64,000 nucleotides of DNA from Candidatus Multivoradales bacterium (GCA_965223755.1 CBDCXF010000001.1:937256-1001255); one strand, 5' to 3'; shown: positions 4,346-33,232, counted from the first letter of the stretch. Notes: generated from the letters alone by a model not told the origin. Program-made: numbers and translations.

Positions 4346-6037
4346 ATGCGCAAACTCCTCATCTTTGCCGCCTTTGTCATCTTTGCAGCCATCGCCTCCA
4401 CACTCGGCTGCCAGAACACGGCGTCGACACCCGCCGATCTGGTCCTCACCGGCGGCGTCATCCGCACCATGGATGCCGATCGCACCGTCGCAGAAGCAAT
4501 CGCGGTGCAAGGCGACCGCATCATCGCGCTCGGCAGCAGCGAAGACGCCAAAGCCTGGATCGGCCGAGACACCGAGGTTGTCGAGCTCGCAGGCGCCACC
4601 GTGCTGCCCGGCCTGATCGAGAGCCACGGCCATTTTCTCGGCTTCGGCGAAACCCTCACCCAGGTCGACCTCACCGACGCAGTCGATTTCGAGGACGTCG
4701 TCGCACGCGTCGCAGCCGCGGCGGCCCAAGCCGAGCCAGGGTCCTGGATCCGTGGCTTCGGGTGGCATCAAGAGAAGTGGCGCGAAACCCCGGCGGACGC
4801 TGTCGGTGGATTTCCGGTGCACGACTCGCTCAGCGCTCGGACGCCGGATCACCCGGTGTTCCTGTCCCACGCTTCCGGCCACGCTGCCTTGGTTAATGCC
4901 AAAGCCATGGAGTTGGCTGCCATCACCGCCGACACTGCGGCACCCGAAGGCGGCGAAATCTTGCTCGGCGCCCATGGCGAACCCACCGGCCTGCTCAACG
5001 AATCGGCGGAAAACCTCGCCGTCGCCCGCATGGAAGTGGATTTGGGACGCGATGAGCACAGCTTGCGCGCCGCCGCAGAGGCCGCGGCGGCCGAAAGTCT
5101 GGCCCACGGGGTGACCACCTTTGTTGACGCCGGCACCACCCTGGCGACACTCCACGCCCTGGGCGCCGTCGCCGACGAGGGCGAACTAGGGGTCCGTCTG
5201 TGGGCAATGATCCGCGACTCCAACGACAACCTGTCCGGCGAACCCCCGCAACCGAGCGACTGGTTTCGGGTGGGAGGCATCAAGGTCTCTCTCGACGGCG
5301 CTTTGGGATCGCGAGGAGCGTGGCTGTTGGAGGACTACACCGACGCACCGGGCCAGACCGGCCTCCAGCAGGTCAGTCTCGAGAGCCTGCGCGAGACCGC
5401 AAACATCGCCCGCGACCGCGGCTTGCAACTGTGCGTGCACGCGATCGGCGACCGCGCCAACCGCGAGATCCTCGACCTCTACGAAGAGTTCTTAGACTCG
5501 CAGGACAGGTCGCCACGTTGGCGCGTCGAGCACGCCCAGCACCTCCACCCAGAAGACATCCCGCGGTTTGCAGCATTGGATGTCGTGGCGTCGGTGCAGG
5601 GGGTCCATTGCACCTCCGACGGACCTTGGGTGCCGACGCGTTTGGGTGAGCGGCGAGCGCGGGAGGGCGGCTACGTTTGGCGCCTACTCCTCGACTCCGG
5701 AGCGCTGGTCGTCAACGGCACCGATGTTCCCGTTGAAGCCATCGATCCGTTCGCCAACCTGGAATCGAGCGTCACCCGCGTGATGGGCAATGGCGAGGCG
5801 TTCTACCCCGATCAAGTGATGACCGTCGAGGAAGCCCTTCGTTCCTACACCATCGACGGCGCTTACGCGATCTTCGCCGAGGATGAGCTGGGGTCGTTAA
5901 CTCCCGGGAAGCTCGCCGACCTGATCGTCCTCGACCGCGACCCCGTCGCCGTGCCCAGCTCCCAGTTGTCCGAGCTCCGGGTACTGCGAACCGTGGTCGG
6001 CGGCCAGACCCGCTATCTGGCGGATCAATCCGAATAG
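4346..6037 (+). CDS. amidohydrolase family protein (Amidohydro_3), lipoprotein
   Basis: Signal plus lipobox LGC. Metal-binding LPGLIESHGHF motif. Shows C-terminal amidohydrolase homology. Confidence 0.85.
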   Translation: MRKLLIFAAFVIFAAIASTLGCQNTASTPADLVLTGGVIRTMDADRTVAEAIAVQGDRIIALGSSEDAKAWIGRDTEVVELAGATVLPGLIESHGHFLGFGETLTQVDLTDAVDFEDVVARVAAAAAQAEPGSWIRGFGWHQEKWRETPADAVGGFPVHDSLSARTPDHPVFLSHASGHAALVNAKAMELAAITADTAAPEGGEILLGAHGEPTGLLNESAENLAVARMEVDLGRDEHSLRAAAEAAAAESLAHGVTTFVDAGTTLATLHALGAVADEGELGVRLWAMIRDSNDNLSGEPPQPSDWFRVGGIKVSLDGALGSRGAWLLEDYTDAPGQTGLQQVSLESLRETANIARDRGLQLCVHAIGDRANREILDLYEEFLDSQDRSPRWRVEHAQHLHPEDIPRFAALDVVASVQGVHCTSDGPWVPTRLGERRAREGGYVWRLLLDSGALVVNGTDVPVEAIDPFANLESSVTRVMGNGEAFYPDQVMTVEEALRSYTIDGAYAIFAEDELGSLTPGKLADLIVLDRDPVAVPSSQLSELRVLRTVVGGQTRYLADQSE

Positions 6038-6061: not shown

Positions 6062-7039
6062 ATGCGCAATCGATTGACTTACCCGCGTTTCTTCTGCCTT
6101 CTGGCTCTGTGCCTCGCAGGTACTCCAGTAGCCTCGGACGAAGACGCTCCTGCCGGTGTCGAGATCCTGTTGCCGCGGGGTGCCATAGCGGCGGTCTTTG
6201 AGCCCCAATGGGTCACGGCCGAAGAAGCGACGATCCCAGACGAGGCATGGGTCCTCGGCATCGTCGTTGACGACGAGGCCCACGCCTACAGCCTCAACCT
6301 GCTCAACCGCCACGAAATCGTCAACGATCGCTTCGGCGACCTGCCGGTCGCCGCGGTCTGGTGACCTCTCGCCAATACGGCCGTGGTCTACGGCCGCCAG
6401 CACGGCGAACAAGAACTCAACTTTGAAGCCTCGGGGGGACTCCTCGACGCGTCTTTGGTGATGCGCGACCGCGAGACCGACAGTTGGTGGTCGATCATGA
6501 CCTCCGACGCCATCGGCGGCGAGCTACACGGCAAAGCGCTCGATCAACTCCCGATGGGCGAAAAACTTCCTTGGGGTGAATGGCGGCAGCGTCATCCGGA
6601 CACACTGGTCCTGTCGGTCGACGGCGTCGAGCACGACGACACCAATCCCTACGACAACTACTTCGCGTCCGACGGCACCTTTCGCGATATGCCGGTGGAC
6701 GACGATCGACTCCCGGCTAAAGCCCCTGTTTACAGCTTCTGGATCGACGGCCAGCCGCACGCCATCGCTCACTCGGCTCTTTCGGGAGCCACTCTTTTCG
6801 ATCTCGGCGACAGCGGCCGTGCGCTCCTCCACCGCGATTCAGACGCACCGATCTACGCCTCTTCCGACGCGTTTTTGATTCCCGCCGACTTCGATGCAGA
6901 GTTGACCGGGCCGGCGCTGCTCGCCGCGGCGCGGGAGGGAGCTCAAGGCATTACGCGCCTGTCCGGGTTTGACACCTTCTGGTACATCTGGACGTCGGTC
7001 AATCCACAGACCGAACTCCATACGCGCGCCGCCGAATAG
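6062..7039 (+). CDS. DUF3179 family secreted protein with an in-frame TGA at 6362-6364 (candidate selenocysteine codon, otherwise a pseudogene)
   Basis: ORFs 6062-6364 and 6383-7039 are in the same frame. Together they match DUF3179 across the TGA (…HEIVNDRFGDLPVAAVW-TGA-PLANTAVVYGR…SLVMRDRETDSWWS). The N-terminal signal peptide MRNRLTYPRFFCLLALCLAG is present. Confidence 0.6.
6378..6396 (+). promoter_or_regulatory. SECIS-like stem-loop 13 nt downstream of the in-frame UGA
   Basis: cggccgt-GGUCU-acggccg. A 7-bp stem with an apical loop GGUCU, the same loop sequence I recall for the E. coli fdhF SECIS. Confidence 0.35.
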
Positions 7040-15041: not shown

Positions 15042-16517
15042 ATGTTGACCTGGGCCGCTCTCGCCTTTGTCGCGCTCTTGGCGCTCGCCGCGATCTACGA
15101 CCTCACCCAGCGCAAACACGCTATCCTGCGCAACTTCCCATTGATCGGCCACTTCCGCTATTGGCTGGAAAGCGTCGGCCCGGAATTGCGCCAATACATC
15201 GTCACTTCCAACGATGAAGAGCGTCCGTTCTCCCGCGATCAACGGGCCTGGGTTTACACCTCGGCCAAGAAGCAGAACAACTACTTCGGTTTCGGCACCG
15301 ACAACGACCTTTCGTTAACTCCCAACTACCTCATCATCCGCCACTCGCAGTTCCCCAAAACCTCGCCCCACCCCGGCGATGATGGCTACGACCCGCACTA
15401 TCCGGTCGCTTCGGCCAAGGTTCTTGGCGAGCACCGCAACCGCCGCAAAGCATTCCGGCCTCCCTCGATCGTCGGCATTTCGGCGATGAGTTACGGCTCA
15501 CTGAGCGCGCCCGCCGTGCAGGCCCTCAACCGCGGTGCGGCGACCGCCGGCTGCCTGCACAACACCGGAGAGGGCGGCGTTTCGCCCCATCACTTGCAGG
15601 GGGGAGACCTCATTTGGCAAATCGGCACCGGCTACTTCGGATGCCGAGCTGAGGATGGCGGCTTCAGTCGCGAGCGTTTCCGGGACACCAGTTCTCACGA
15701 CGCCATCAAAGCGATCGAAGTCAAGCTCTCTCAAGGAGCCAAACCGGGCCTCGGCGGCGTCCTGCCGGCCGAGAAAGTCACTCCAGAGATTGCCGCGATT
15801 CGTGGAATCCCGCTGGGCAAGTCCTGCCTCAGTCCCTCGCGCCACTCGGCCTTCTCCGACGTCGACTCCATGCTGGACTTCGTCGAGTCCCTGGCTGACG
15901 ACAGCGGCCTGCCGGTAGGGATCAAATCGGCCGTTGGCGATATGGCCTTCTGGCATGAATTGGCCCGCGAAATGGGGCGCGGAAACCGCGGCGTCGACTT
16001 CATCACCATTGATGGCGGCGAGGGAGGTACCGGGGCCGCTCCGTTGGTTTTCTCCGACCACGTTTCGCTGCCCTTCCTGCAAGGATTCTCGTCGGTGCAT
16101 CGCATCTTCGCCGACCATGGACTCACCGATCAGGTCGCGTTCATCGGCTCCGGCAAGCTCGGTTTTCCGCAACGAGGCCTGCTCGCCATGGCCATGGGAT
16201 GCGATTTGTTGTCGGTCGCGCGCGAAGCGATGTTGGCGATCGGCTGCATTCAAGCTCAGAGGTGCCACAGCGGACACTGCCCCACCGGCGTCGCCACACA
16301 GAACAAATGGCTGGTGCGCGGGCTCGACCCCACCGACAAGTCGGCGCGACTGGCCAACTACATAATCACTCTACGCAAAGAACTGCAGCAACTGGCGCGG
16401 GCTTGCGGCTACGACCATCCGGCAGAAGTACCGCTGGACCGCTTTGCCATTCTCGACGACCAACTCGGCCACCGCCCGGCGGTGGAGGTCTTTGGCTATT
16501 CCTCGGCGGCGGCCTAG
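15042..16517 (+). CDS. FMN-binding glutamate synthase family protein (GltS FMN-domain-like)
   Basis: N-terminal TM helix. Motifs GEGGVSPHH, ITIDGGEGGTGAAP and CHSGHCPTGVATQ. Confidence 0.85.
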   Translation: MLTWAALAFVALLALAAIYDLTQRKHAILRNFPLIGHFRYWLESVGPELRQYIVTSNDEERPFSRDQRAWVYTSAKKQNNYFGFGTDNDLSLTPNYLIIRHSQFPKTSPHPGDDGYDPHYPVASAKVLGEHRNRRKAFRPPSIVGISAMSYGSLSAPAVQALNRGAATAGCLHNTGEGGVSPHHLQGGDLIWQIGTGYFGCRAEDGGFSRERFRDTSSHDAIKAIEVKLSQGAKPGLGGVLPAEKVTPEIAAIRGIPLGKSCLSPSRHSAFSDVDSMLDFVESLADDSGLPVGIKSAVGDMAFWHELAREMGRGNRGVDFITIDGGEGGTGAAPLVFSDHVSLPFLQGFSSVHRIFADHGLTDQVAFIGSGKLGFPQRGLLAMAMGCDLLSVAREAMLAIGCIQAQRCHSGHCPTGVATQNKWLVRGLDPTDKSARLANYIITLRKELQQLARACGYDHPAEVPLDRFAILDDQLGHRPAVEVFGYSSAAA

Positions 16518-18396
16518 CCGACCAGCATCGATCGCGGCCCTGTCTCTGGCGCTGCTCGCGTCGGTCTTGACGACCTGTGGCCCGAACGACGACTCGAGCC
16601 TGCCACCCGGCGCCCAGCCCGAGCTGGTCGCCAACCTGCGCGCCAACGCTGAGGCCCAACGTCACCCCGCCGACGGCGGTGGGAATGCACGTCTCGTCAA
16701 TCCCGACCCGGTGCCAGCCGGCTCTCTCGCCATTTGGAGCATCGAATTCACGGTTGGCGAGCTGGGCATAGCGGATGGGGGCTCCATCCACTTTCAGCCT
16801 TCCCCATTTTGGGGTTGGAGCCCGCCACAGGTCGACTATCCCGATCTGCCCGGATATACCGTCGTCACGACAAACGACCCTGACATCGCCCTGACCACAA
16901 CCGCAGCTCCAGGAGGTCCGCTGATCATCACCGCTGGCGACGGGTTTCGACCGGGAGAGGAAATCACCATTCGCTATGGCGGTGAGGTCGGAGCCCGCGC
17001 CGATCGCTACCGGGACCGTGAGTCGCGACTGTGGATCGGAGTCGATGGCGACGGAGACGGGAGTCGTCAGTGGCTCGCCGGCAGCCCGGCGGTCGAAGTC
17101 GTCGCCGGCCCCGCGGCGGCCTGGCTGACTTCGCTTCCCGCAACCGCTCAACGCGGCGACACGGTGTTGCTGCGACTTGCAGCGGTCGATGCCATCGGCA
17201 ACCGCGCCGCGTATTCAGGCACGGCACAGCTCGAATTGCCCGCAGGGTTGATCGGGCCCGAGGAGGTCAAAGTCCAAGACGGCAGCGGAACGGTGCAAGT
17301 AACCGTCGACCGTGACGGGCTGCACGTCGCCACCGCGAGCGGCGCTGGGCTGCGCATCGGCGAGTCCAACCCGATGCTGGCGAGCCACAACTTTCCGCGT
17401 TTGCTGTGGGGCGACCTCCACGGCCACACCGGTCTTTCCGACGGAACCGGCACCCCGGAGGACTACTTCGCATACGCGCGCGAGATCGCCGCACTCGACT
17501 TCGCCGCCATCACCGACCACGACCACTGGGGCATCCAACCGCTCGATTCGTCGCCGGGCAACTGGCAGCGCATCCAAAAAGCGGTGGCTTCAGCACACGC
17601 CCCACCGAGCTTCGTCGCCCTCCTCGGCTACGAATGGACCAACTGGATTTACGGCCACAGACATGTCGTCCACTTCGCCGATGACGGCCCGCTGTTGTCG
17701 TCGCTCGATACTGAGCACGAGCACCCACGGCAGCTTTGGAACTCACTACGCGACCTCCCCAGTTTGACCTTCGCTCACCATTCCTCCGGAGACCCCATTC
17801 CGATCGATTGGTCGATCGCTCCAGATCCAGTGCTCGAACCGATTACCGAGATCGTTTCGGTGCATGGATCGAGTGAATCGCGCGACGGCGCTCGGCCGGT
17901 GGGCGGATCGCGGAGTGGCAACTTTGTGCGCGACGCGCTCGGTCGCGGCTATCGCCTCGGCTTTATCGGCAGCGGCGACAGCCACGACGGACATCCCGGT
18001 CTTGCCCACTTGGCCTCCCCCAGTGGTGGTCTGGCCGCGGTGTGGAGTGCGGAGAACACGAGGGAGGCAATCCTGGCGTCGCTGCGCTCGCGACGGGCTT
18101 ACGCCACCAACGGCCCCAAGATGTTGCTGCGCGCTCGGCTCGATGACCACGAAATGGGCTCGGTTTTGCCGAGGTTCGAGCGGTCGAATCTCAAGGTGTT
18201 TGCCGTAGGGACGACCCCGGTAACCCGGATCGAAGTGATCGTTGATGGGCAGATCGTGCATCGATTGAGTCCGACAGAAGGTCGTTTGGCCTCTTGGCAG
18301 ACGCATCTCGACACGTCCAAATCCGACTACGTCTACGTACGCGTCGCTCAGGAAGGCTATGGAATGGCCTGGTCGAGCCCGTTCTTTTTGCAGTGA
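16444..18396 (+). CDS. DUF3604 domain protein (PHP-like metal-dependent phosphoesterase fold), lipoprotein
   Basis: WGDLHGHTGLSDG and DHDHWG motifs. Signal/lipobox …ALLASVLTTCG. The ATG at 16444 overlaps the upstream gene by 74 nt. An in-frame TTG near 16495 is an alternative start. Confidence 0.7.
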   Translation: MPFSTTNSATARRWRSLAIPRRRPSRPASIAALSLALLASVLTTCGPNDDSSLPPGAQPELVANLRANAEAQRHPADGGGNARLVNPDPVPAGSLAIWSIEFTVGELGIADGGSIHFQPSPFWGWSPPQVDYPDLPGYTVVTTNDPDIALTTTAAPGGPLIITAGDGFRPGEEITIRYGGEVGARADRYRDRESRLWIGVDGDGDGSRQWLAGSPAVEVVAGPAAAWLTSLPATAQRGDTVLLRLAAVDAIGNRAAYSGTAQLELPAGLIGPEEVKVQDGSGTVQVTVDRDGLHVATASGAGLRIGESNPMLASHNFPRLLWGDLHGHTGLSDGTGTPEDYFAYAREIAALDFAAITDHDHWGIQPLDSSPGNWQRIQKAVASAHAPPSFVALLGYEWTNWIYGHRHVVHFADDGPLLSSLDTEHEHPRQLWNSLRDLPSLTFAHHSSGDPIPIDWSIAPDPVLEPITEIVSVHGSSESRDGARPVGGSRSGNFVRDALGRGYRLGFIGSGDSHDGHPGLAHLASPSGGLAAVWSAENTREAILASLRSRRAYATNGPKMLLRARLDDHEMGSVLPRFERSNLKVFAVGTTPVTRIEVIVDGQIVHRLSPTEGRLASWQTHLDTSKSDYVYVRVAQEGYGMAWSSPFFLQ

Positions 18397-18647: not shown

Positions 18648-19670
18648 TCATCCCCGCGTGCGGGGATCGGCGGGCGGATTCTGGCGAAAACGGGCCCGGA
18701 GCTTTGCGGTCGCCGCCCTCGTTCGTCGCAACTTGAACAGCCGGCGCTGCTCCTCGGCTTCCTCAAAGGTGTCGATGTCCTTGGCGAAGGAAAGCGCATT
18801 GACCAGCGGAATGCGGCCGCGGCGCTCGGGATGCGCTTTGCGGTGGCGCCAGCGAATCAAGATGGCGCGAATGCGATCGGCGAGCTCCTCGGTCGTCATC
18901 TCGCCGCCGCGCAGCCGGAGCGCAAGGCGGATGCTCTGCCACAGAGTCGGCAACGTCGCCACCGGAGGGCGCAGGCGCGCCAGATGCCGCAGATCCTGCC
19001 CGATCAGGAACCCGGCCAGGTGCATTGTGCCGTAGAACAGCCGGTACATCACCGATCGGTTGCGCGTACGGTACAGCAGGTCGAAGGCACGGTACACCAG
19101 CGGCAGGCGAAAGACGGCTGCGTCGACGATCATCAAGTGGCTTGGAAGAACCGCTCTCGACGCTTCGGCTTCTGAGGGTCGCAAGGTGTACTTCGGTTTC
19201 CACGCCGACTCGCCGAGCTCTTCGTCGGCGGCCAGGACCAGCGGATACCAAAAGTCCATCGGCACGTGGGCCCGGTAATCCGCCATCAGGGCGTCGAGTT
19301 CGTCGAGATCGGGGATGATGTCGTAGGTCGTGATGGCGAGAGGTTTGCCCGGATGAATCTCCGCCATCGCCTCAAGCACCGTGCGCACGTTGGCTCCCAA
19401 ACTGCGGTCGGTGTCAATGACCTGGGCGCCTTCTCGATTTTCGCCATAGACTGTTTTGGGGCCGGCGATGTAAGCCGGGGCGAAATGCCCCGAGCCAAGC
19501 ATGCGTTCGAGGACATGATCGATGAGCGGCCGTCCTTCGACCTGGACCTCGACGCCCTTTTTGCCTTGAATGGCGTGTTGACCCGAGCCCTCGGGCAGCG
19601 CCGCTGGCCGTTCATCGCTGCCAGCGAGTACCACCAAAGGTAACGGATGAAAATCGGCGCTCATCGCCAT
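18648..19670 (-). CDS. nucleotidyltransferase family protein (MobA-like NTP-transferase domain)
   Basis: N-terminal LVVLAGSDERP…GKKGVEVQVEGRPLIDHVLERM resembles the MobA/GlmU-type NTP_transf_3 family. The C-terminal half is uncharacterised. Confidence 0.5.
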   Translation of the reverse strand: MAMSADFHPLPLVVLAGSDERPAALPEGSGQHAIQGKKGVEVQVEGRPLIDHVLERMLGSGHFAPAYIAGPKTVYGENREGAQVIDTDRSLGANVRTVLEAMAEIHPGKPLAITTYDIIPDLDELDALMADYRAHVPMDFWYPLVLAADEELGESAWKPKYTLRPSEAEASRAVLPSHLMIVDAAVFRLPLVYRAFDLLYRTRNRSVMYRLFYGTMHLAGFLIGQDLRHLARLRPPVATLPTLWQSIRLALRLRGGEMTTEELADRIRAILIRWRHRKAHPERRGRIPLVNALSFAKDIDTFEEAEEQRRLFKLRRTRAATAKLRARFRQNPPADPRTRG

Positions 19671-21930: not shown

Positions 21931-24900
21931 AGGCCGCTCCGAAAAGGAGCGGCCCATTTGAAAGAAAGCCTCTAGCTCTGGCTAGCTAGCTTGAGAAGGT
22001 GCCCTAGCGCACCTCCACCGCCGGGTCACCGAGCAAGTTGTAGATCTTGAGCATGAAGTCGAAGACCTCACCATTGGACTGATCCAAGGTAGTCTTCACG
22101 GCTTCACCCAGTTCCACCGGACCGTGGCCAAATGCCGCGTCCAGCAGCTTCTGGTTCATCACATGCGCCGGATGGCTGTAGGAAAGGCCCGAGGGAGACC
22201 ACAGCCCAATTGCTCCACCCGTCGGCTCCATCACCAATTGCTCACCCAAGGTCGTCAACGACGGCCACGAGAAGTTCCCAACCACGCAGGTCAGCGAAGC
22301 CACGATCGGCAGACGGTCTCCGTTGCCAAAGCCAGGCACATCGGTCGACATCACCATGCCCTCCGAGGCAAAGCGGTCGATCCCGCCGTGACCCTGGAAG
22401 TTCACCCAAGACGCACCCACATACCACTCGGTACTGATCTGGCTGCGAGCCGTGGCCGTGTCCAGATCGCCCAAGGAGATGTGCGAGGTCGTCTTGATCC
22501 CGGATAGCTGATCCACCAAGACATCGGTGTCCATCGGGTAGATACCGGCCTGGTCGGCGTTGTCCGAAAGGAAGATGGCGCTCGATTCCCAAGCACCACC
22601 GCCGTTCTCATAGGCGATCAGCTTGTCAACGTAACTCTGAGCTTCAAGCCCCGTCTCAGCCGGAATGCGGCTGAAGATCACCTCGGGCGATCCGTTGCCG
22701 GTGACATCACCCAGGCCGATGTCCGAGGCCGCAAGGCCATTCGGCGTCGGCACGAAGCGCGCCGGAATGAGGTGGTCGGTGCGACCCGTGTAGTTCTTCG
22801 GATCGTGAGAACCCGTGCCCATCAGCACCACGTACTTGAGCTTCTCGCTCCAGCCGCTGTAGCCGTGCTCGGCCAGGGAAGCCAGACTCTCGACATCCGA
22901 GAGACCGAAGGCAAACTCGTCATAAACCTCTTCCAGGTCCACCACCATGGTCGAGTACTTCGAAGAGCGCAGGTTGGCCAGAGCCTCGGCCGCAGAGCGC
23001 GTCTCCGGCGTCGCCACCACCACGTACTCAGCACCGTCCGAGGTCTTGATCTTGGAAGGCGCGTCGGTACGCAGGTCGGACAAACGCTTCGCTGACGAAA
23101 CCGTAGACAGATCGTAGGTCGCCCCAGCCACCGTCGGCACCGTCACCGAGAAGCTGCCGTCAGCTTCTTCGGTGATCCTCGTCTTGCCCAAGTGGACCAG
23201 GTCGCCACCGTCGGAAGCAAAGGCCTCCACAGCACCCGCACTGAAGCCCTCCACCGTCGCCACGCCGTCGGCAAGAGCCGTGAAGCGCAAGCGATCGCCG
23301 ATCGCCCGCAGCGCCCGCGGATAACTGAGCGTAAAGCCGTCCACGTACACCACCGAGCCCGAGCTGCCCTCAAACACCAACTCAATGGTGTTGGCGTTGC
23401 TCAGCAAGGAGGAGTCGAAAGTGAAGCTGCCCACAAACATCTCGCGGTCCAACCACGAAGCTGTACCCACCTGCGTGCCGTTCACCTTGACACCCATCCG
23501 ATGACCGCCGCTCGGAGTAAACGTCGCACCCTGGAGGCGCACCTCCAGAGAGGCCGTACCCGAAGCCGGATCATTGGCCGCGATGGCAAAGCTCTGGGTC
23601 GCCGCGCCGCTCCAGGAGATCGACCAGCGCCAGTAGTCCGCATTGGGGTCGTCCTCGAGCCACAGCATCCCGTACACCTGCTCCTCGGCCTCGGAGGTCT
23701 CACTGTAGAGACCGCCGTAAAAAGGCGCGGGAGCGGCGCCGCTCTTGAGCGAGCCGGCAAGCTTCCCTTCACCGCGGCCGATCCAGTAGACGTTCTCATC
23801 GGTCGTGGCAAGGTCAATCGCCTCGCCTTCGAAGTAGAGGCCTGCTCCACCCTTCGGCGCCCACCAACCGATGGCGTTGCCGCGGTTAGTTACCATCACC
23901 GCATTGTCGCGGATCGACTTTTGGGTGTCGCTCTCACTGATACCCCAGGCCGTAGCAAGTTCTTGCGCGGAGACATACACCACCCCATCCTCGGTCACCG
24001 TACCCTTGGCCCAAGAGGTGCTAGCACCTCGACCGCGGGGACGGCCGTTGCGGCTCGGAGCCGCCGAGGAAACCGCACCGCGAGCACTCGGACCCGCAGC
24101 CGCTCGGACCGAGCCAGCTGACTTGGAGCCAGTTGACTTGGAGCCAGCTAACTTGGAGCCAGTTGACTTGCGGGCAGCCTGGCGCGCCTGGTAGCGCTCC
24201 GCCGGCGAAGCATCCCAAGCCTCACCGCTTGCCGTGAACGGGCCGTGCACGATCTCTTGACCCAGAACTCCGATCTCAACCACCACGTAGCGATCCCCTG
24301 GCTTGCCGGCAGGATCGAGAATCTCGTAAGTCGTACCCGCGCCAGCGCCAGGATCAGCCATCACCAGCTCGCTGTTGACCAAACTGTATTCCTTGGTTGA
24401 GCTGTCCCAGCGGTAGACGTCATAGGCCATCACTGCAGCCTCTGAAGCCGTGCGGAAGCTCACCTTGCCGCCCTGGGCACGCACACCCACCACCGTCGCC
24501 GGGTTGGGAGTAATCGTGAAGCCGGCATCCACATCCGTCACTTGATCCCCACTCTCGAGCACGAACACGTTGGTCAAGAATTCGCCATCCGCCTCGCCGT
24601 CGATCGCTGCATCATCAACGTAGACATCGCTGTCATTGGCGATGTCCTGGCTGGTGTCCGTGGGGTCCGGATCACCCACATCCTGAGCCGTTGCCGTCGC
24701 CGTGTCATAGGAACCCGAAGTCGGATCGATGCCCACGATGTAGTTGCCGGGAGGCAGCGGTTGCTCACCGTCCACCAAGGTAAACAAGTAGGCACCTCCG
24801 ACCGTCGTCTGCTGATCCACAAAGGTCAGTTCGTCAGGATCAACCGTGCCGTCATTGTCGGTGTCATCCCAGCGATACAGCGTCGCCACTCCATCAACCG

Positions 24901-27900
24901 TGCCGTCGCCCGCGTCCTGCGTCCCGTTGACCGGATCGTCGGCAAACAACTCACCGGCAATCGACGTTGGACGGTAGAAACCGGCGTCGATCGAAAAGTC
25001 GGAAACTCCCTGAGTCAGCAGTACGTCGACATCGGTCTCTCCAGAGCCGGAGCGAGAAGCATCGTTGTCACCACCACCACCCTCAGGGTCAAACACCGAA
25101 CCGTCTCCGTCACCATCCGGGCCGGTTTCGTTGTCGACCACTGTCGCCTCCCAAGTGTCGGCCAGACCGGAAGTGTCAAAGGTGATCGTGTAAGGCGTCG
25201 TGCTGAACGGCACATTGTTGAAGATGTACGAACCGGCAGGATCGATCGTCCCGTCACCGTCCACATCAGTCGTACCGTCCGAAGTCGTCGTCGTCAGACT
25301 CACAGCGTTGCCAAAAAGGTCCGTGCCCGTGAGCGTTACGACTACGCCCGCGATCCCAGGCTCGCCGGCATCCTGGATACCGTCACCGTCCACGTCCTCC
25401 CACACGAAGTCGCCAAGCTGCGCCACGGATTGAACGCCGAAGTCGTTGGTGTCGTCGGTCGTTCCCTGCTCGGGGTAGGCCGAAGTCCCGGACACCATGT
25501 CGGCATCGCCGTCGACTCCCGATCCTTGAGTCTCGCTGCTGTCAGCAGTCGCCCCAGAACCATCTTCGGTCGAGGCGTAGCCGATAAGGGCGTCCTGGGT
25601 CATGTCAACCGAGACGGTGTAGGTCGGCTCAGTCGAACCATCTCCGGTGTTGCCGTTGTAGTCCTCGTCAGCCAGTAGATTGTCGAAGCTATAAACCCCG
25701 TTTGCATCTGTAACCGTCACAAGCGTGACCGTTGAACCATCCGGATAAGAGATCGTCATCTCAACGGTGACCCCGGAAATTCCCGGCTCGCCCGTATCTT
25801 GAACGCCGTCACCGTCGTAGTCGTAGAAAACTGTGTCCCCGACCGAGCCCGGATCCACGTAGTAGCCGAAGTCGCCGGTCGAGTCCGTCGTACCGCCTGA
25901 AACGTTGATCAGGTACGGATCGTCCTGACTGTTGTTGTCGGCGCCATCATTGGGGCCGTCCGAGTGCCACATACCACCCAGTACGTTGTTCTCATCGGTG
26001 ACATCGATGGCGTAGGTGCCGTCCGGCAGACCTTCAAATGAGTAGTCCCCGTTGGCGTCGGTGGTCGTCGTGCCAACCAGATCACCCAATAGGGTGCCGT
26101 CGTCGCTGCCGTCGATCGCACCGTCGCCGTTGTAGTCAACTTGCCCGTCGATGATGTCGTAGCCGTTGATCGAGCCGTCGTCGTTGGCGTCGATCACGCC
26201 GTCGCCGTTGACGTCGAAGGCGCCGTCGATCACCGCGATGCCACCAAAGGTGCCGTCGTCGTTGCCGTCCACCACCCCGTCGCCGTTGACATCGACTCCG
26301 CCGTCAATGATGCCCGCGGCCTCGTAGAGATCCACCGTCACGCCCTCAAGGCCGGCGCCGGTCTCGTCCAGAGTGCCGTTGCCGTCGGTGTCTTCCCACA
26401 CCGTGCCACCGATGGTGTTGGGCGTCGAGGCGACGTAGCCGAAGTCCTGATCGAGATCGATGCCGCCCGAAGCCCCCAGATCCACAGCAGAAGTCGAATC
26501 CCCGCCGCCGTCCGGATCGTCGGTGTTGGTCAGACCCGTCCCGCCGTTGGGAAGCGTCGACGTCTCGATCTCCACAATGTAGTGAGCATTCGGATCGAGA
26601 CCACCAAAATAGTAGCTGCCGTTTTCGTTCGTCGTCGCGGTCGCGATGATCGGCTCGCCAGGGTCCAAAACGCCGTCACCGTCCAGGTCATCGTAGAGAT
26701 TCACGGTGACCCCCTCGAGCCCGGCCTCGTCCGCGTCCTGCGTACCATCCCCGTCAGCGTCGAGATAGATGTTGTCGCCGATCAAACCGGTATCGCTGTT
26801 CTGGCCCGGCGGCGTGTAGCCGAAGTCCAAATCGGTGACATCCGTGCCCCCGACCGTGACCGAAGTCTGGTCATCGAGAACCGCATCGGGATCGCCGCTT
26901 TGGCTCAATCCCTCGAGGACATTGGCGGTGTCGCCCACCACCACGTTGTAGTCACCCGCAGGTACATCGGTGAAGGTGTAGTCGCCGTTTTCATCAGTTG
27001 TAGTTGTGGCAACAATGATCCCCAGCGTGCCGTCGTCCGTCGCATCGATGACGCCGTCGCCATTGATGTCGACTTCACCGTCGATCACCGTCACCCCGCC
27101 GACGCTGCCGTCATCATTGCCGTCGATGACGCCATCGCCGTTGACATCGAGCTGGCCGTCGATGACATTGATGCCATCGACCGTCCCGTCGTCGTTGCCG
27201 TCGATAACGCCGTCGCCGTTGACGTCGATTTGGCCGTCGATGATGTCGTAGGTCTCGACCAAGTTGACCGTGACCCCCTCAATGCCATCGTCGGAACCGG
27301 TACCGATGTCGTTGGCACCGTTGCCGTCGGCATCCAGATACACCGTTCCGGAAACATCCGCCAAACTGGTGTTCTGGTAGCCGAAGTCGGTGTTGACAAC
27401 CACATCACCAGGAGCCAAAACGATCGGTGAAGTTGTGGTGCCGTCGTTGGCCGCCGCACTGGTGTCGGTCGAACCGAAGTGATCGGGGTCACCGGTCTGG
27501 GTGTACCCGGTCAGCACGTTGTTGTCGTCCGTCACCGTCAAGGTGTACACCCCTGGATCGAGGTCGTCAAAAGCGTAGTTGCCGGTGCTATCCGTGGTAG
27601 TCGTCGCAATCGGAATCTCAGCCGTACCGTCGTCGCTGCCGTCGATGACTCCGTCACCGTTGACATCCAACTGGCCGTCGATCACCGTCACCCCATTGAG
27701 CGTGCCGTCATCGGCCGCCGTAATCGAACCGTCGCCATCGAGGTCGATTTGACCGTTGATGATGTCGAGCGGGTCACCGTTGTCGTCGAGCACCGTGCCG
27801 CTGTCGCTGGCGTCGATGACGCCGTCGCCGTTGAGGTCGATCGCACCGTCGATGACGGTCTCCACCTCGGCCAGCAAGACCGTGACCCCTTCAATGCCCA

Positions 27901-28338
27901 ACTCACCTTCGTCCTGGATGCCGTCGCCGTCGGCGTCGTTCCAGATCCGGTCGCCGATCGCGCCGGTGCCGGTGTTGGTGTCGGTCTCATCGGTAGTTGA
28001 GTAGTTGTAGCCAAAGTCGACAATGTCGATGTCCTCGCCGGCATTGAGAGTGATCGTGGACTGGCTGTCCAAGGTCGAATCCGGATCGCCGGTCTGGTTG
28101 GTGAGACCCGTCGGCAGGGTGCTGGTGTCGACCGCCACCGTGTAGTCGCCAGGAGGCACATCGTCAAAGATGTAGTCGCCATTGGCATCCGACGTCGTGG
28201 TCGCGATCGCGGTTGTCGCATCGCAAGGCGAAACACCGGCCTCACAGAGGTATACCGTGACATTGGCAATGCCGTCTTCACCGGCATCCTGAATACCATC
28301 GCCGTCCTCATCCAACCAGATCGAGTCGCCGATCGAGC
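21931..28338. repeat. 6.4-kb direct repeat, copy 1 (shared 3' cassette plus terminator)
   Basis: Near-identical to 33233-39640 at a constant offset of 11,302 nt. The six-frame ORF sets are duplicated with single-residue differences. About 9 aa substitutions across 2,111 shared codons. Confidence 0.9.
21932..21954 (-). terminator. rho-independent terminator of giant gene 1
   Basis: ggccgctcc-gaaaa-ggagcggcc. On the minus-strand transcript it is followed by UUUUUCUUUUUCCC. Duplicated at 33234-33256. Confidence 0.65.
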
Positions 28339-31300
28339 CGGTCTCCGGAACCAGGCCCGCGTCTAGCGTCGTGTTGCTCTCGCCCGAGCCGAGGAAGAAG
28401 GTCGTCGTTTGACCCGTCGATGGATCAGCGTCGGAGTCGAGCGTGTCATCGCCGCCCGCGTCCTGAGTCGTGAAATCCCAGCCAGCCGGAGCGGTGAACG
28501 TCACCGAGTAGTTGCCCGACACCAAGTTGTTGAAGAGATAGGAGCCGTCAGCGGCGGTCGTCGTCACCAAGGTCACCGAATTGCCGAAAATATCGACTCC
28601 GGTCAGCGTCACGGTCACACCTTCGATGCCCGCTTCTCCGCCATCCTGAATGCCGTCGCCATCGTCGTCCGACCACACGGAGTCGCCAACGGACGCCGGC
28701 TGCACCAGTCCAGCGTCTACGGTGTCGTTGACCTCGCCCTGGGCGAGAGTGATGGTCCCGGTCTGACCGAAGACATTGATGTCGCTGTCGACGCTGTCAT
28801 CACCGCCGGCATCTTGAACGGTCGGCAAATAGCCGCTGGGCGCGACGAAACCAAGCTGGTAGTCGCCAGCGACCAGATCGTCAAACTCGTAGGAACCCGC
28901 AGGATCGATGATTCCATCTCCATCTACATCGGTGGTGCCATCGGAAGTCACCGTGGTGTAAAGAGCGTTGGAGGCGTCACACGTCGTCACTGTCTCCTCG
29001 CACAGGTACACCGTGACTCCAGAGATCCCCGGCTCGCCCGAATCCTGGATGCCATCACCGTCCAGGTCTTCCCAAACGAGGTCGCCAATAACCGACGTAT
29101 TGGTGCTCGGCGGCATGCAGAACTCGTCGGAGGCGCTCTCTGGTCCGGTGGTCGCCGTCGCCGTGTTGCAGATCTCGTCGGGTGGAGCGGGTAGACTATC
29201 CACCACCACTTGGAAGGTTACGGTCGCCGTTTGTCCAACATTCAGGACGAACGGAATCAACGCTCCTCCCTCATCAAGCGGAAACACTGTCGTTCCCACT
29301 CCGTCGTCAGCCAACGGTGCAGGCCCAGAGCCATCGTTGGGATCGACCGTCGTCGTATTGGGCACGTAGCTCACGAACGAGGGCAAAAAGTCCTCTACCG
29401 AAAGCGAGTTGATGGGCACAAATCCAACGTTGGTGAGATCCAACTGGTAGGTGATGGTTTCGCCGACATTGGGCTGTCCGTCCCCGTTCGGATCGTCGGT
29501 CACCGACCCAGACTTAACCGTCGCAATCGAGGCCACATTGGGAATCGCGGTGCCGAGGTCGATGGCCGGGCTACCGCCTGTGGCGGTATCGGGATCCTGT
29601 CCCCAGGCAACCGCAATCGCGGTCGAATCCTGGTCGGCGGCATCGTCGTCGCAGACCCAAATGGCCATGCCAGTCTGGTCGCCGTCGGGATCGTAGAGGA
29701 TGGTGCTGTCGAGGGGATCAACCTCCAAGCGCAGGTCGTACTCCAACCCGGTGACGGGATCGATATTGGGAGTGGCGACAATCGTCTCCAACTCCAAGGT
29801 GGCTCCGAGAAATGTGCCATCGTCAGCAGAGGGAAAAACGTCGCAAATTGCCAATGTCCAAGTACCAGCGGAACTCTCCCCGTTGAACGAAGTGTCGGCC
29901 CATAAAACGCTGCGCTCGTAGTTGAAATCGTTCTCAACAGTATCGTTGTCGCCATCGTCGAGGGCTCCGCCACTGCCGGTCAGATAGATGTCGTAGTTAT
30001 CCAGGGAATCGGTCCCGCTCGACGCAATCACGGTTACCGTCGTTCCGTCCGGCGATGTCAGCGTCGCCTGGATATCCCCTCGATAAGCATGCGAGGCCTC
30101 AAATCCAAGGTTGACCTCAGAGACAGTGAAGATGCCGGCAACGTTAAACGTCCGCACTAACTCTCCGCCGCCACAGGTGGTTGTCCCATCGATGGCCCCA
30201 TCTGTGCCGTTGTTGACGGTCGTTTGGATCGTCGATGTGCCGCTGGTCGCATCCGTGCCGTCATTGTCATAGTCGACGCACAGAGTGATCTTGCCGTCGA
30301 CCAAAGCGCTGCCGTCGACCGAATCCGCGGTGACCCACACCGGGCTCGAGTTTTCCGAGCTGGTAACCAGAGGATCGTTGCCAAATCCGAGGCCTACAAG
30401 AGCTTGTTGTGTGAGCTGGGTCTCCGGCACAAGAGTGAAACCCCAATCGTGGGCATCGCTGCTGTTGGGGACAGTGTTGGTCGTATCGTTGGTGTTGGCG
30501 TCGATGTCGATCGAGGCAATCGCGTAAAAAGCCTCCCCTGCGGGATCACACGTCGTGTTGTCGGTAGTGGTGCAGAAATGGGCACCGCTGCCGTTCGGCA
30601 TGACATAACTGGCCGTACTTCCGGCGGGCACGACCACGGTCGCCGTGCCACCGCCCTGCAGCTCAACCAGCACCGTGATACCGCTGGCCGAGGGGTTGTA
30701 CAGAGTCACCGAGGTGGTGTCGTCACCGCCCGAACTGGTCGGGTTGTAGTAGCTGTTACTCCAATCTTCCACGGGGAAGAGGGTGTAGAAGCGCGACTCG
30801 TAGTTGTCACAAATATCGCCCGCAAGGAGCCCAACTTGCACCGGGGCCGAGGACTCCACCGTTGCTCCTAGCAAAACTCCACCGTCGGCGAAATATGTCT
30901 GGCCTTCATTCAAGATCACCGTGGTGTCAACCACACCATCGGCGTTCAAATCCACATCCACGACCGTACCGTCTTCCTGGGCCATAACCGTCATACCGAT
31001 GTACTGGAAGGGTTCGTTGGTTTCGCTAAAAACGTCTTCTCCAATGGGGGCCTCATAGGCGGTGCCCCAGTTGTCAGTGGAGTACATCTCAAACGCACCG
31101 GCGAGCAAGGTCGTAGTGCTGTCTGCCCAATTGGCCTTGGTCATCGAGATGGTGTCAGTTGCCGCCACCTTGTCGCCCCCGTCGAAGTCGATGACCGACT
31201 CGAGGGTGGTAGAAGTCACCTGATTCTCAAGCAGGATGACGCTGCCCTGATCGAGCACGTCGCAGGCGTCAGCAGCACATCCTGGGGGCGCGCCGTTGGA

Positions 31301-32971
31301 AGCGTCTCCGTCACCCCACACCTCCGTCGTTGCCTGCAACGGAGCATTGATCTCGTCCTCGAAACCGTCCTCCCAGTGGTCGTAATAGATGATGGTGTTA
31401 TCGCGCAACACCGCAATCGAGGTATAGGAACTGGTCGGGTCGACCGGCGCGGACACGCTCGGGCAGCTCTCTCCGCCGGTCGTCGCGTTGGGATAGATCG
31501 ACTGCAACGCTGCCAGCAGCTCGTCCTCGGGTAGAGGCATGTAATAGGTCGTGACCGGTGGCGGTCCCTGTGAAGGCGGAACATTAACGACCACGGTGTT
31601 GGAGTTGACTGGCGAAGTCTGGTCGCTGTCCACGCTCGCGGTGTTGGAGATCGAGCCGGCAGTCACATCGGCCGCCGTCACCGTGTAGGTTCCTGTCAGC
31701 ACACAGCTTTCGCCCGTATTCACCGAAGCACAGGTTTCACTACTGGGAGTCAGTGGAAGGCCGGTGTCGCTGACGACAACGTTGGTGAAAGTTGTCGCAG
31801 GGGCCGCATACACCTCCACCTCCCCAATATTGAGCGCGTCGCCTCCAGGGTTAGTCCCCGATTTTTGCAGACGGACATATCTACCCGTGACTCCGCCGAC
31901 CGGAACATTGAAGTCTTGACCTGTGGTCGTCGAAGGAAGCTGGAATTCGAACTCCGCGGTGGCGCGGGCGTCGGACAGGTTGATCGCCCCGCCGCCCGCC
32001 GTCGGAAACGGATCGTCGGAGACCAGCACGTAGACATTGCCAAGGCGATCCGAGCAGCAGTCATCGCGGTTGAAGATGGCGATGGAGTCGATGAACTGCA
32101 GTGAGCCCAAGTCGACCTGCCACCAATCGTTGACCTCTGTACCGGCAGTATGGGCCATGCCTTCAAAGGTGTTCGCGCCTGTCGTATCACCATCGATGGC
32201 ATTGGCGGCCACGAGGTTGTTGCCGTTACTGAGAGTCGTCCACTGGCTCGCCGTCCCCGATAACGCCACGTTGGTTGGAGACCCACTAAATCCAGCGGTG
32301 GCCGTAACCGTGTAGGTCAATACATCGCCCTCGGAGACACGCCCGTCGCCGTCTCCATCTGCATTGGTCGGCGTTGACTTGACGATCTGTAGCTCGCTAG
32401 TCGACGGCGGCGTGCCATCAAACTCGAGAGTCAACGACTGGTAGGAAGGTTGGGTGCCCGACGGCCCCGCCGTCCAGGTCATGGTCAGGGTCCAAATCCC
32501 CATTGCTTGCTCGCCGTCAAACGCTGACAAAGCGTTTTCGGGAATGCGATCGCGTCCGGTTGCTGGAGCTGTATGGTTGGTGGTATCCGATTCGAGCGTC
32601 GTCACCGCTTCGTCATCGAGACGCGCGAACAGGTTCTCGCCCAGAGCCGCAAGTTGGTTGCCCACGTGAAGCAAAACTGAAGTGCCGATCGGAGACTGCA
32701 ACGATACGTCGATCCCGCCACGGTTGATCGTCGTCAGACTGACGACCGCGTTGAGGTCGTTGACGGTAAAGTCATCGGTAACGTTGATGGTCGCCGTCAC
32801 CGTCCCTGCCGGGCCGCTGGCGGTGCTGTCGGTGTAGTTGAATGGATCGGCCGCCGATGGGCCGGCTGCCAAAGCCAAGACGCCAACGACCAACGCGAAT
32901 CGCCGAAAAGTGGATCGGCAATGTCGTCCATGCAAAAGAGACCCTTTTAGGGCCTTGGCTGGTTCTTTCAT
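22004..32971 (-). CDS. giant secreted Ca-binding surface protein 1, about 3,655 aa. Order: signal peptide, P-domain, DUF11, discoidin, P-domain, SdrD-B-like repeats with dockerin-like Ca loops, C-terminal peptidase C25 (gingipain-like) domain
   Basis: ATG at 32971 with a GGGGAG RBS and signal FRRFALVVGVLALAAGPSAADP (the ORF is open to 33082). Proprotein-convertase P-domain-like segments (DVSLQSPIGTSVLL and GDIQATLTSPDGTTVTVI). F5/8-C discoidin (WWQVDLG). About 10 SdrD-B-like modules (IGDxIWxDxDGDGIQDxGE). Three blocks of DxNGDGxIDxxDDG triplets. C-terminal C25 motifs YVVLMGTGSHD, NFQGHGG, LTCVVGNF and LLGDPAVEVR. The 3' 6.4 kb is more than 99% identical to 33233-39640. Confidence 0.8.
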   Translation of the reverse strand: MKEPAKALKGSLLHGRHCRSTFRRFALVVGVLALAAGPSAADPFNYTDSTASGPAGTVTATINVTDDFTVNDLNAVVSLTTINRGGIDVSLQSPIGTSVLLHVGNQLAALGENLFARLDDEAVTTLESDTTNHTAPATGRDRIPENALSAFDGEQAMGIWTLTMTWTAGPSGTQPSYQSLTLEFDGTPPSTSELQIVKSTPTNADGDGDGRVSEGDVLTYTVTATAGFSGSPTNVALSGTASQWTTLSNGNNLVAANAIDGDTTGANTFEGMAHTAGTEVNDWWQVDLGSLQFIDSIAIFNRDDCCSDRLGNVYVLVSDDPFPTAGGGAINLSDARATAEFEFQLPSTTTGQDFNVPVGGVTGRYVRLQKSGTNPGGDALNIGEVEVYAAPATTFTNVVVSDTGLPLTPSSETCASVNTGESCVLTGTYTVTAADVTAGSISNTASVDSDQTSPVNSNTVVVNVPPSQGPPPVTTYYMPLPEDELLAALQSIYPNATTGGESCPSVSAPVDPTSSYTSIAVLRDNTIIYYDHWEDGFEDEINAPLQATTEVWGDGDASNGAPPGCAADACDVLDQGSVILLENQVTSTTLESVIDFDGGDKVAATDTISMTKANWADSTTTLLAGAFEMYSTDNWGTAYEAPIGEDVFSETNEPFQYIGMTVMAQEDGTVVDVDLNADGVVDTTVILNEGQTYFADGGVLLGATVESSAPVQVGLLAGDICDNYESRFYTLFPVEDWSNSYYNPTSSGGDDTTSVTLYNPSASGITVLVELQGGGTATVVVPAGSTASYVMPNGSGAHFCTTTDNTTCDPAGEAFYAIASIDIDANTNDTTNTVPNSSDAHDWGFTLVPETQLTQQALVGLGFGNDPLVTSSENSSPVWVTADSVDGSALVDGKITLCVDYDNDGTDATSGTSTIQTTVNNGTDGAIDGTTTCGGGELVRTFNVAGIFTVSEVNLGFEASHAYRGDIQATLTSPDGTTVTVIASSGTDSLDNYDIYLTGSGGALDDGDNDTVENDFNYERSVLWADTSFNGESSAGTWTLAICDVFPSADDGTFLGATLELETIVATPNIDPVTGLEYDLRLEVDPLDSTILYDPDGDQTGMAIWVCDDDAADQDSTAIAVAWGQDPDTATGGSPAIDLGTAIPNVASIATVKSGSVTDDPNGDGQPNVGETITYQLDLTNVGFVPINSLSVEDFLPSFVSYVPNTTTVDPNDGSGPAPLADDGVGTTVFPLDEGGALIPFVLNVGQTATVTFQVVVDSLPAPPDEICNTATATTGPESASDEFCMPPSTNTSVIGDLVWEDLDGDGIQDSGEPGISGVTVYLCEETVTTCDASNALYTTVTSDGTTDVDGDGIIDPAGSYEFDDLVAGDYQLGFVAPSGYLPTVQDAGGDDSVDSDINVFGQTGTITLAQGEVNDTVDAGLVQPASVGDSVWSDDDGDGIQDGGEAGIEGVTVTLTGVDIFGNSVTLVTTTAADGSYLFNNLVSGNYSVTFTAPAGWDFTTQDAGGDDTLDSDADPSTGQTTTFFLGSGESNTTLDAGLVPETGSIGDSIWLDEDGDGIQDAGEDGIANVTVYLCEAGVSPCDATTAIATTTSDANGDYIFDDVPPGDYTVAVDTSTLPTGLTNQTGDPDSTLDSQSTITLNAGEDIDIVDFGYNYSTTDETDTNTGTGAIGDRIWNDADGDGIQDEGELGIEGVTVLLAEVETVIDGAIDLNGDGVIDASDSGTVLDDNGDPLDIINGQIDLDGDGSITAADDGTLNGVTVIDGQLDVNGDGVIDGSDDGTAEIPIATTTTDSTGNYAFDDLDPGVYTLTVTDDNNVLTGYTQTGDPDHFGSTDTSAAANDGTTTSPIVLAPGDVVVNTDFGYQNTSLADVSGTVYLDADGNGANDIGTGSDDGIEGVTVNLVETYDIIDGQIDVNGDGVIDGNDDGTVDGINVIDGQLDVNGDGVIDGNDDGSVGGVTVIDGEVDINGDGVIDATDDGTLGIIVATTTTDENGDYTFTDVPAGDYNVVVGDTANVLEGLSQSGDPDAVLDDQTSVTVGGTDVTDLDFGYTPPGQNSDTGLIGDNIYLDADGDGTQDADEAGLEGVTVNLYDDLDGDGVLDPGEPIIATATTNENGSYYFGGLDPNAHYIVEIETSTLPNGGTGLTNTDDPDGGGDSTSAVDLGASGGIDLDQDFGYVASTPNTIGGTVWEDTDGNGTLDETGAGLEGVTVDLYEAAGIIDGGVDVNGDGVVDGNDDGTFGGIAVIDGAFDVNGDGVIDANDDGSINGYDIIDGQVDYNGDGAIDGSDDGTLLGDLVGTTTTDANGDYSFEGLPDGTYAIDVTDENNVLGGMWHSDGPNDGADNNSQDDPYLINVSGGTTDSTGDFGYYVDPGSVGDTVFYDYDGDGVQDTGEPGISGVTVEMTISYPDGSTVTLVTVTDANGVYSFDNLLADEDYNGNTGDGSTEPTYTVSVDMTQDALIGYASTEDGSGATADSSETQGSGVDGDADMVSGTSAYPEQGTTDDTNDFGVQSVAQLGDFVWEDVDGDGIQDAGEPGIAGVVVTLTGTDLFGNAVSLTTTTSDGTTDVDGDGTIDPAGSYIFNNVPFSTTPYTITFDTSGLADTWEATVVDNETGPDGDGDGSVFDPEGGGGDNDASRSGSGETDVDVLLTQGVSDFSIDAGFYRPTSIAGELFADDPVNGTQDAGDGTVDGVATLYRWDDTDNDGTVDPDELTFVDQQTTVGGAYLFTLVDGEQPLPPGNYIVGIDPTSGSYDTATATAQDVGDPDPTDTSQDIANDSDVYVDDAAIDGEADGEFLTNVFVLESGDQVTDVDAGFTITPNPATVVGVRAQGGKVSFRTASEAAVMAYDVYRWDSSTKEYSLVNSELVMADPGAGAGTTYEILDPAGKPGDRYVVVEIGVLGQEIVHGPFTASGEAWDASPAERYQARQAARKSTGSKLAGSKSTGSKSAGSVRAAAGPSARGAVSSAAPSRNGRPRGRGASTSWAKGTVTEDGVVYVSAQELATAWGISESDTQKSIRDNAVMVTNRGNAIGWWAPKGGAGLYFEGEAIDLATTDENVYWIGRGEGKLAGSLKSGAAPAPFYGGLYSETSEAEEQVYGMLWLEDDPNADYWRWSISWSGAATQSFAIAANDPASGTASLEVRLQGATFTPSGGHRMGVKVNGTQVGTASWLDREMFVGSFTFDSSLLSNANTIELVFEGSSGSVVYVDGFTLSYPRALRAIGDRLRFTALADGVATVEGFSAGAVEAFASDGGDLVHLGKTRITEEADGSFSVTVPTVAGATYDLSTVSSAKRLSDLRTDAPSKIKTSDGAEYVVVATPETRSAAEALANLRSSKYSTMVVDLEEVYDEFAFGLSDVESLASLAEHGYSGWSEKLKYVVLMGTGSHDPKNYTGRTDHLIPARFVPTPNGLAASDIGLGDVTGNGSPEVIFSRIPAETGLEAQSYVDKLIAYENGGGAWESSAIFLSDNADQAGIYPMDTDVLVDQLSGIKTTSHISLGDLDTATARSQISTEWYVGASWVNFQGHGGIDRFASEGMVMSTDVPGFGNGDRLPIVASLTCVVGNFSWPSLTTLGEQLVMEPTGGAIGLWSPSGLSYSHPAHVMNQKLLDAAFGHGPVELGEAVKTTLDQSNGEVFDFMLKIYNLLGDPAVEVR

Positions 32972-33232
32972 GAACTCCCCGGCGAGTGCCACCCGACTGA
33001 AGATGACTGCGGAGTGGTCTAATGACTCACGCCAGTCACTACCGTCAAGTCCTTTGTTCGGCAGTAAGCGTCCCCCAAACACTTACTAGGGTGGGGCGAT
33101 CACGGGATCGCCCGTGGATCATGTTGGCCGAACAGGCGGCCAACAAGTGCGCAAATTGTCACCGTCTGGCGATAATGTCAACTGTTGTAGCCATGCAGTA
33201 CGGAGGGGTTGGGGAACGGGCACACAAGAAAT

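Follow-up and report, generated by a model that had tools for sequence, protein, structure and literature searches.

A putative selenocysteine codon and a conserved downstream hairpin in a DUF3179 gene of a Candidatus Multivoradales bacterium

A DUF3179 gene in a Candidatus Multivoradales bacterium (GCA_965223755.1) is interrupted in frame by a single UGA codon, which raises the question of whether this codon ends translation, marks a damaged or misassembled gene, or is read as selenocysteine (Sec). The gene lies on the plus strand at positions 6062-7039 of a 64,000-nucleotide stretch (CBDCXF010000001.1:937256-1001255), called the window hereafter, with the UGA at 6362-6364 and a hairpin at 6378-6396. 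An original prediction, made from this sequence alone, had proposed a candidate selenoprotein and named a fresh pseudogene and a TGC-to-TGA sequencing error as the alternatives. We favor the reading that 6062-7039 is a functional DUF3179 gene with genuine Sec decoding of the UGA, at a probability of about 0.9. The comparative data carry this case, namely the recurrence of TGA at the same column in relatives, its exchange with Cys, and the constraint on the hairpin in TGA-bearing genes.

The reading frame and the UGA column across relatives

From the ATG at 6062 to the terminal TAG at 7037-7039, the locus was identified as one frame of 325 sense codons, and its translation confirmed the TGA at 6362-6364 as the lone internal stop. 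Mechanical listing of open reading frames (ORFs) divides it into an ORF of 100 residues (6062-6364) and a second of 218 residues with a GTG start (6383-7039), both in the identical frame. The proposal that the two together reconstruct a complete DUF3179 protein was borne out, with the joined product, carrying Cys at the stop, matching PF11376 (DUF3179) above the gathering threshold (E value 6e-55, 187.2 bits, cutoff 27) over protein residues 41-317 and profile positions 3-292 of 292. Scanning of the joined protein against NCBIfam matched no family. Further, tblastn matches in related loci extended across the TGA, covering query residues of about 1-319.

Unlike the known DUF3179 selenoproteins, the window gene is held in databases solely as the truncated 218-residue ORF at 6383-7039 on the plus strand (P0001), which has 100% identity over 67% of the joined protein. 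This ORF is an annotation artefact, because the GTG taken as its "start" is the hairpin's first Val codon. The codon matching GTG 6383 is GUC or GUA in most relatives and thus no start codon, which explains why ORF callers begin variously in these genomes, at MVYGR, MYGR, or MGDEE.

The predicted signal peptide (6062-6136, plus strand), MRNRLTYPRFFCLLALCLAGTPVAS, was read off the translation and has a basic N-terminus, a hydrophobic core, and small residues ahead of DEDAP, with homologues having comparable N-termini, and the DUF3179 protein would accordingly be exported. The only two Cys residues of the precursor are both located in this peptide, so that Sec is predicted to be the sole Cys-like residue once it is removed.

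Under Sec decoding, one functional gene of this Thermoanaerobaculia (Acidobacteriota) bacterium would encode an exported DUF3179 selenoprotein, with the UGA at 6362-6364 decoded as Sec and not as a stop. The hairpin at 6378-6396 would expose an invariant loop G-U and, by analogy with Escherichia coli fdhF, would bring SelB-GTP-Sec-tRNA(Sec) to a ribosome that has paused at this UGA, such that read-through would be expected to depend on SelB and tRNA-Sec. The product would be a precursor of 325 residues, signal peptide included, with Sec101 in the motif W-U-P-L-A-N, corresponding to the first Cys of the family motif C-P-L-C.

We compared the DNA at 80 species-representative loci of the GTDB set and at 78 loci parsed from a metagenome scan, for which the query was built from Cys forms. 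TGA was identified at the exact column in 79 of the 80 GTDB loci, in the context AAVW*PLANTAVVY[GD]R, with a single exception (L043) carrying TGC. Despite the Cys-form query, the metagenome loci comprised 65 with TGA, 12 with TGC, and 1 with TGT. The combined set includes 144 TGA sequences (138 distinct 57-mers, the window included) and 14 Cys forms with TGC or TGT. The record titles of TGA forms span at least ten phyla, with Acidobacteriota represented by Thermoanaerobaculia, Multivoradales, Holophagae, and Vicinamibacteria, and with other titles including Polyangiaceae (Myxococcota), Krumholzibacteriota, Latescibacterota, Gemmatimonadota, Calditrichia (Calditrichota), KSB1, Pirellulaceae (Planctomycetota), Nitrospira, Cytophagia, and Pseudomonadales. 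Two closed Multivoradales chromosomes (OZ245024.1 and OZ243123.1) are among the records that contain the orthologue.

The same column was recovered at the protein level. Many matches in the protein search had about 215 residues, representing the C-terminal two thirds alone, and fewer were full-length matches of about 330 residues. The truncated matches start with MVYGR, immediately past the TGA position, and the full-length ones read VWCPLAN; at least 25 full-length proteins in the databases harbor a motif of this kind, with Cys at the column. Among close homologues without TGA, the column was occupied by Cys save for two Ser forms and never by Trp. Ser was observed at this position in the full-length DUF3179 homologues P0007, P0055, and P0188 (motifs AAVWSPLA, AAVWSPIA, and ISWSPLA); such Ser forms may be inactive or functionally shifted. 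The TYCPLC motif named in the original prediction is real and was identified in full-length P0167 (ATYCPLCGTG), with canonical members reading W/Y-C-P-L-C. The alignment of homologues thus placed Cys opposite the TGA as had been anticipated, and the Cys/Sec exchange stood. The accompanying CxxC/UxxC pattern did not, as the window motif is U-x-x-A, with Ala in place of the second Cys.

The upstream half is equally widespread, with the N-terminal ORF present in 159 of 160 loci by tblastn. A search of 1.84 billion cluster representatives (50% identity), for which this ORF was the only query, yielded 1585 relatives, and the best 150 of these, which were inspected, included 109 short ORFs ending precisely at the Trp preceding the column and 29 proteins of at least 250 residues. 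The motif was parsed in 21 of the 29 longer proteins and was mostly CxxC (14) or CxxA (4). In 63 of the same best 150 representatives (P0143-P0197 among others), the short ORF ends in [VTA]TW right before the column; these probably correspond to the U-P-L-C branch of DUF3179 in the literature.

The closest relative of the window gene (L161) shares 79% identity in the C-terminal part, with gene order, TGA, and hairpin identical. Synteny assigns the window to Candidatus Multivoradales (Thermoanaerobaculia) or its vicinity. Synonymous and nonsynonymous codon differences between the two numbered 40:25 upstream of the TGA and 82:45 downstream, and both halves flanking the TGA are, as judged from these counts, under purifying selection. 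TGA ends 15 other predicted genes of the window, and a global codon reassignment is therefore not at work. A scan of the window for other TGA-split genes gave off-frame or antisense artefacts only, apart from the DUF3179 gene.

The hairpin 3' of the UGA

The selenocysteine insertion sequence (SECIS)-type hairpin at 6378-6396 on the plus strand consists of a 5' arm at 6378-6384 (CGGCCGU), a loop at 6385-6389 (GGUCU), and a 3' arm at 6390-6396 (ACGGCCG), lying within codons Thr106-Arg112. It is separated from the TGA by 13 nt (6365-6377), so that the 7-bp stem, the gap, and the loop were all recovered as originally described. Numbering the U of UGA as 1, the pairs are 17-35, 18-34, 19-33, 20-32, 21-31, 22-30, and 23-29, with G25 and U26 at positions 6386-6387. 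A terminator reading of the hairpin was rejected, with no T-run and no terminator call at the site.

The hairpin register was kept in the other TGA-bearing genomes, with all 138 distinct TGA forms retaining 5-7 of the 7 pairs (seven in 49, six in 81), as against 3-6 pairs, mostly 4-5, in the 14 Cys forms. Conservation of third-codon bases is 85-99% in the stem versus about 50-70% in flanking codons, and synonymous entropy is the lowest in the gene at codons +5, +6, and +9. At codon +6, Ala is GCC in 95% of sequences, with a normalized synonymous entropy of 0.13 versus 0.61-0.88 at other conserved Ala columns; Thr +5 is ACG in 83%, though ACC is favored elsewhere, and Tyr +9 is UAC in 99%. G18, the partner of C34, was identified in 117 of 138 TGA forms versus 2 of 14 Cys forms (Fisher p 1e-7). 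Compensating changes were also found, with U18 accompanied by A34 (an AGR Arg codon) in 6 of 6 cases (Fisher p 1e-8) and U21 by A31 (GCU Ala and AGC Ser codons) in 8 of 8 (Fisher p 3e-12), both p values carrying no correction for relatedness. Pair 20-32 varies with residue +10, being C-G with Gly (the case of the window) and a C.A or G.A mismatch with Asp.

The loop reads N-G-U-N-U throughout the 138 TGA forms, comprising CGUGU (80), GGUCU (25), AGUCU (25), AGUUU (7), and AGUAU (1), with G25 and U26 showing no variation in any of the 138. Although only 2 nt apart, loop positions 24 and 27 form a Watson-Crick complement (C/G, G/C, or A/U) in 112 of 138, and this covariation may reflect a SelB-bound loop conformation. 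The Val-Val codon pairs GUC-GUC and GUG-GUG were found in zero TGA forms, and GUC-GUC is the commonest pair among Cys forms. Taken together, these comparisons indicate that the hairpin is selected as RNA, specifically in TGA-bearing genes.

The E. coli fdhF SECIS is a 40-nt element whose 17-nt upper stem-loop begins 11 nt past the UGA, with U17, G23, and U24 essential and the loop G-U dinucleotide recognized by SelB (PMC8659212). The fdhF segment TGACACGGCCCATCGGTTGCAGGTCTGCACC contains GGTCT in its apex and was recovered within fdhF at 100% identity in 5420 of 5426 E. coli genomes. Both hairpins are part of the coding sequence, immediately 3' of the UGA, and present a G-U in the apical loop, flanked in each case by complementary bases (G22/C25 in fdhF, 24/27 in the clade). 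The resemblance to the fdhF loop noted in the original prediction was found to be literal, with GGUCU occurring at the fdhF apex (GCA-GGUC-UGC). Within the clade, GGUCU is a minority loop compared with CGUGU; the constant part is N-G-U-N-U, and GGUCU is thus no signature of the family. The two elements also differ in that the loop G-U of the window is located at 25/26 versus 23/24 in fdhF, and in that many orthologues, although not the window, harbor the mismatch at 20.32 and the usual clade loop is CGUGU.

Selenocysteine decoding weighed against its rivals

Several observations on the genome and on the hairpin count against Sec decoding. ARAGORN identified no tRNA of any kind in the 64-kb window, hence no tRNA-Sec, and among the 34 (of 36) predicted window ORFs that were scanned against Pfam, none was identified as SelA, SelB, or SelD. 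The competence of the host to decode Sec is assumed from relatives, and the selenium in proteins of the W-U-P-L-A-N clade is itself predicted. In ViennaRNA, the minimum free energy (MFE) structure of a 66-nt segment contains the hairpin (-25.3 kcal/mol, z -2.39, 2 of 200 shuffles as good), but of 2000 synonymous recodings with window codon usage, 23% matched or fell below the MFE of the native sequence, because codon positions 1 and 2 of T-A-V-V-Y-G-R fix most of the stem pairs. Mean MFE did not separate TGA forms (-8.6 kcal/mol) from Cys forms (-8.7 kcal/mol), and folding energy was therefore rejected as a discriminator between them, in favor of pair counts in the fixed register and covariation. 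The two conserved Val codons force the loop G-U, which is thus inseparable from constraint at the protein level. Finally, in contrast to fdhF, the window stem begins 13 nt after the UGA, as in all orthologues, instead of 11, and is a perfect 7-bp helix without a bulged U; the hairpin is SECIS-like by analogy, yet departs from these two E. coli-specific criteria.

RNAalifold retained the three top pairs only, and the hairpin taken alone is weak evidence. The whole window gave zero matches to Rfam at gathering thresholds, and ARAGORN identified no tRNA-Sec in 40 related loci. In one of these loci, from a Thermoanaerobaculia metagenome-assembled genome (MAG; L011), the DUF3179 gene is followed about 1.2 kb downstream by an unusually long 98-nt gene at 5125-5222 (plus strand), called by ARAGORN as "tRNA-Pro (cgg)". 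Selenoproteins have been reported in Acidobacteria (PMC1794560), and a literature search for selenocysteine in Thermoanaerobaculia found no paper.

A fresh pseudogene, or an assembly or sequencing error, would require only that one base turned TGC into TGA in a Cys-type DUF3179 gene, and Cys forms do exist in the same peptide context. Such an event is hard to reconcile with a TGA at the same column in the 144 sequences (138 distinct) of the combined set, from independent assemblies and many phyla, or with purifying selection on both halves relative to L161, and the RNA-level constraint on the hairpin is missing in Cys forms. The conservation of TGA, together with the synonymous excess on both of its sides, therefore excludes the two alternatives named in the original prediction, and the chance that we would still grant them is negligible. 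A real TGA in a host without Sec decoding would leave either a recently stranded relic or a 100-residue peptide, with or without a separate 218-residue protein from GTG 6383, and would agree both with the Sec machinery not seen in the 64-kb window and with the 218-residue ORF that gene callers predict. However, sel genes would not be expected in so small a sample as 64 kb, given that one contig of this genome measures at least 1.6 Mb, and the hairpin is intact and the same as that of the 79%-identical relative, though many other synonymous sites differ. In the structure model, splitting the protein would sever the Rieske-like beta-sandwich of its N-terminal part midway through a strand. Most orthologues have GUC or GUA at the internal "start", and reinitiation is therefore no conserved design. 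We consider a host of this kind improbable.

Hairpins downstream of stop codons are capable of stimulating read-through in general, which leaves room for recoding of the UGA to a residue other than Sec, for instance near-cognate Trp or Cys, with the hairpin acting as a generic stimulator or pause. Against this stand the Cys found in close non-TGA homologues, with two Ser forms and Trp never, which is the signature of Sec/Cys exchange; the prior classification of the family as a selenoprotein by the same criteria; and the loop G-U that E. coli SelB recognizes, which the window hairpin retains. Non-Sec recoding is accordingly judged very improbable, and Sec decoding of the UGA is retained as the favored reading.

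Family context, a Rieske-like lead, and other window genes

DUF3179 (PF11376, motif UxxC/T) is included in prokaryotic selenoprotein-family tables of two reviews, Biomolecules 2022 (PMC9312934) and Appl Environ Microbiol 2026 (PMC13188914), both of which credit Zhang and Gladyshev, NAR 2007, on Olavius algarvensis symbionts (PMC1976440). The 2007 study described three genes from one worm symbiont under the name "hypothetical protein" with a predicted SECIS (PMC1976440), and DUF3179 is probably the "OS_HP1" of that study, by elimination only. The listing of the family in this literature was made on computational grounds only (PMC9312934, PMC13188914, PMC1976440). In addition, the NCBI product name of a 52%-identical Cys form is "DUF3179 domain-containing (seleno)protein". 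The original prediction did not regard DUF3179 as one of the listed bacterial selenoprotein families and was wrong in this respect. The window gene is a member of an already published selenoprotein family, and novelty is low because DUF3179 has already been cataloged as such.

The window gene resembles known DUF3179 selenoproteins in its whole-length Pfam match, Sec at the first CxxC-type position, a hairpin right after the UGA, and Cys homologues at the same column. It differs in its motif, since the reviews give UxxC/T whereas the window and all 144 TGA forms read U-P-L-A, with no second Cys or Thr. A further difference is that the Sec form is the rule in the W-U-P-L-A-N clade, being far commoner than the Cys form and spread over many phyla. 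Ala at the fourth motif position and the dominance of the Sec form are both absent from the tables of the reviews.

We obtained a lead on function from a structure model of the 52%-identical Cys form (P0003), which resembles a Rieske domain at the fold level only. The Rieske [2Fe-2S] ferredoxin of naphthalene dioxygenase (2qpz_A) has the spacing C44-x-H46-x16-C63-P-L-H66, and the window protein has N82-x-H84-x16-U101-P-L-A104, with P-L common to both and positional equivalence suggested by this spacing. His84 (codon 6311-6313, plus strand) is located 17 residues upstream of Sec; among 80 TGA forms, 77 have His at this column and 79 have Asn at -19. The CxH...CxxH ligand set of Rieske proteins differs from the N-x-H...U-x-x-A of the window, with two of the four ligands missing (Cys to Asn, His to Ala), and a Rieske cluster would therefore be unable to bind. 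Alignment to Rieske by hhalign gave a probability of 0.35%, Foldseek gave no significant match for the Rieske resemblance, no Rieske hidden Markov model matched the joined protein, and a PDB sequence search with the family profile gave zero matches.

As a lead only, the model suggests that Sec may occupy a former cluster-ligand position of a Rieske-derived sandwich, which would argue for a periplasmic role in metal binding or in single-selenol redox chemistry. Our best guess is that the Sec site is a redox or metal-binding center on the Rieske-like beta-sandwich. A fuller version, in which the W-U-P-L-A-N clade would form a distinct and widespread exported selenoprotein on a Rieske-derived sandwich, with Sec and His(-17) as a metal site or a single-selenol site without a resolving Cys, is speculative and on balance doubtful. 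The fold relationship and single-Sec chemistry appear not to have been noted before, the reviews giving the motif UxxC/T and an unknown function.

For annotation, the window gene and more than 100 orthologues in public MAGs are stored in two fragments or as a truncated "DUF3179 protein" of 215-220 residues, and selenoproteome counts for Acidobacteriota and several candidate phyla are therefore too low. With its conservation and its covariation pattern, the hairpin also provides a clean SECIS model for these lineages. The scientific gain is small, the use of Sec by DUF3179 being known beforehand, and the Rieske-like fold with the position of Sec is the sole lead able to open the functional question. 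Gene neighborhood was rejected as a clue to function, as the upstream Amidohydro_3 and downstream MltA genes are common only to the closest Multivoradales relatives.

Elsewhere in the window, we identified two tandem giant ORFs on the minus strand, of 3692 residues (22004-33082) and 2556 residues (33306-40976), both with many SdrD B-like or prealbumin-like repeats and a C-terminal Peptidase_C25 (gingipain-type) domain, and the 3692-residue ORF additionally harboring F5/8 type C and P-proprotein domains. Sizeable ORFs with no or marginal Pfam matches were identified at 16444-18396 (plus strand) and at 18648-19670, 41548-42165, and 49749-50321 (all minus strand), comprising a 650-residue protein in which a short stretch matches DUF3604 and three ORFs (340, 205, and 190 residues) without a match. 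An ORF of 608 residues at 42773-44599 (plus strand) combines radical SAM and Radical_SAM_C domains with a GNAT acetyltransferase domain at the C-terminus, so that a bacterial protein has here the architecture of an Elp3-like protein.
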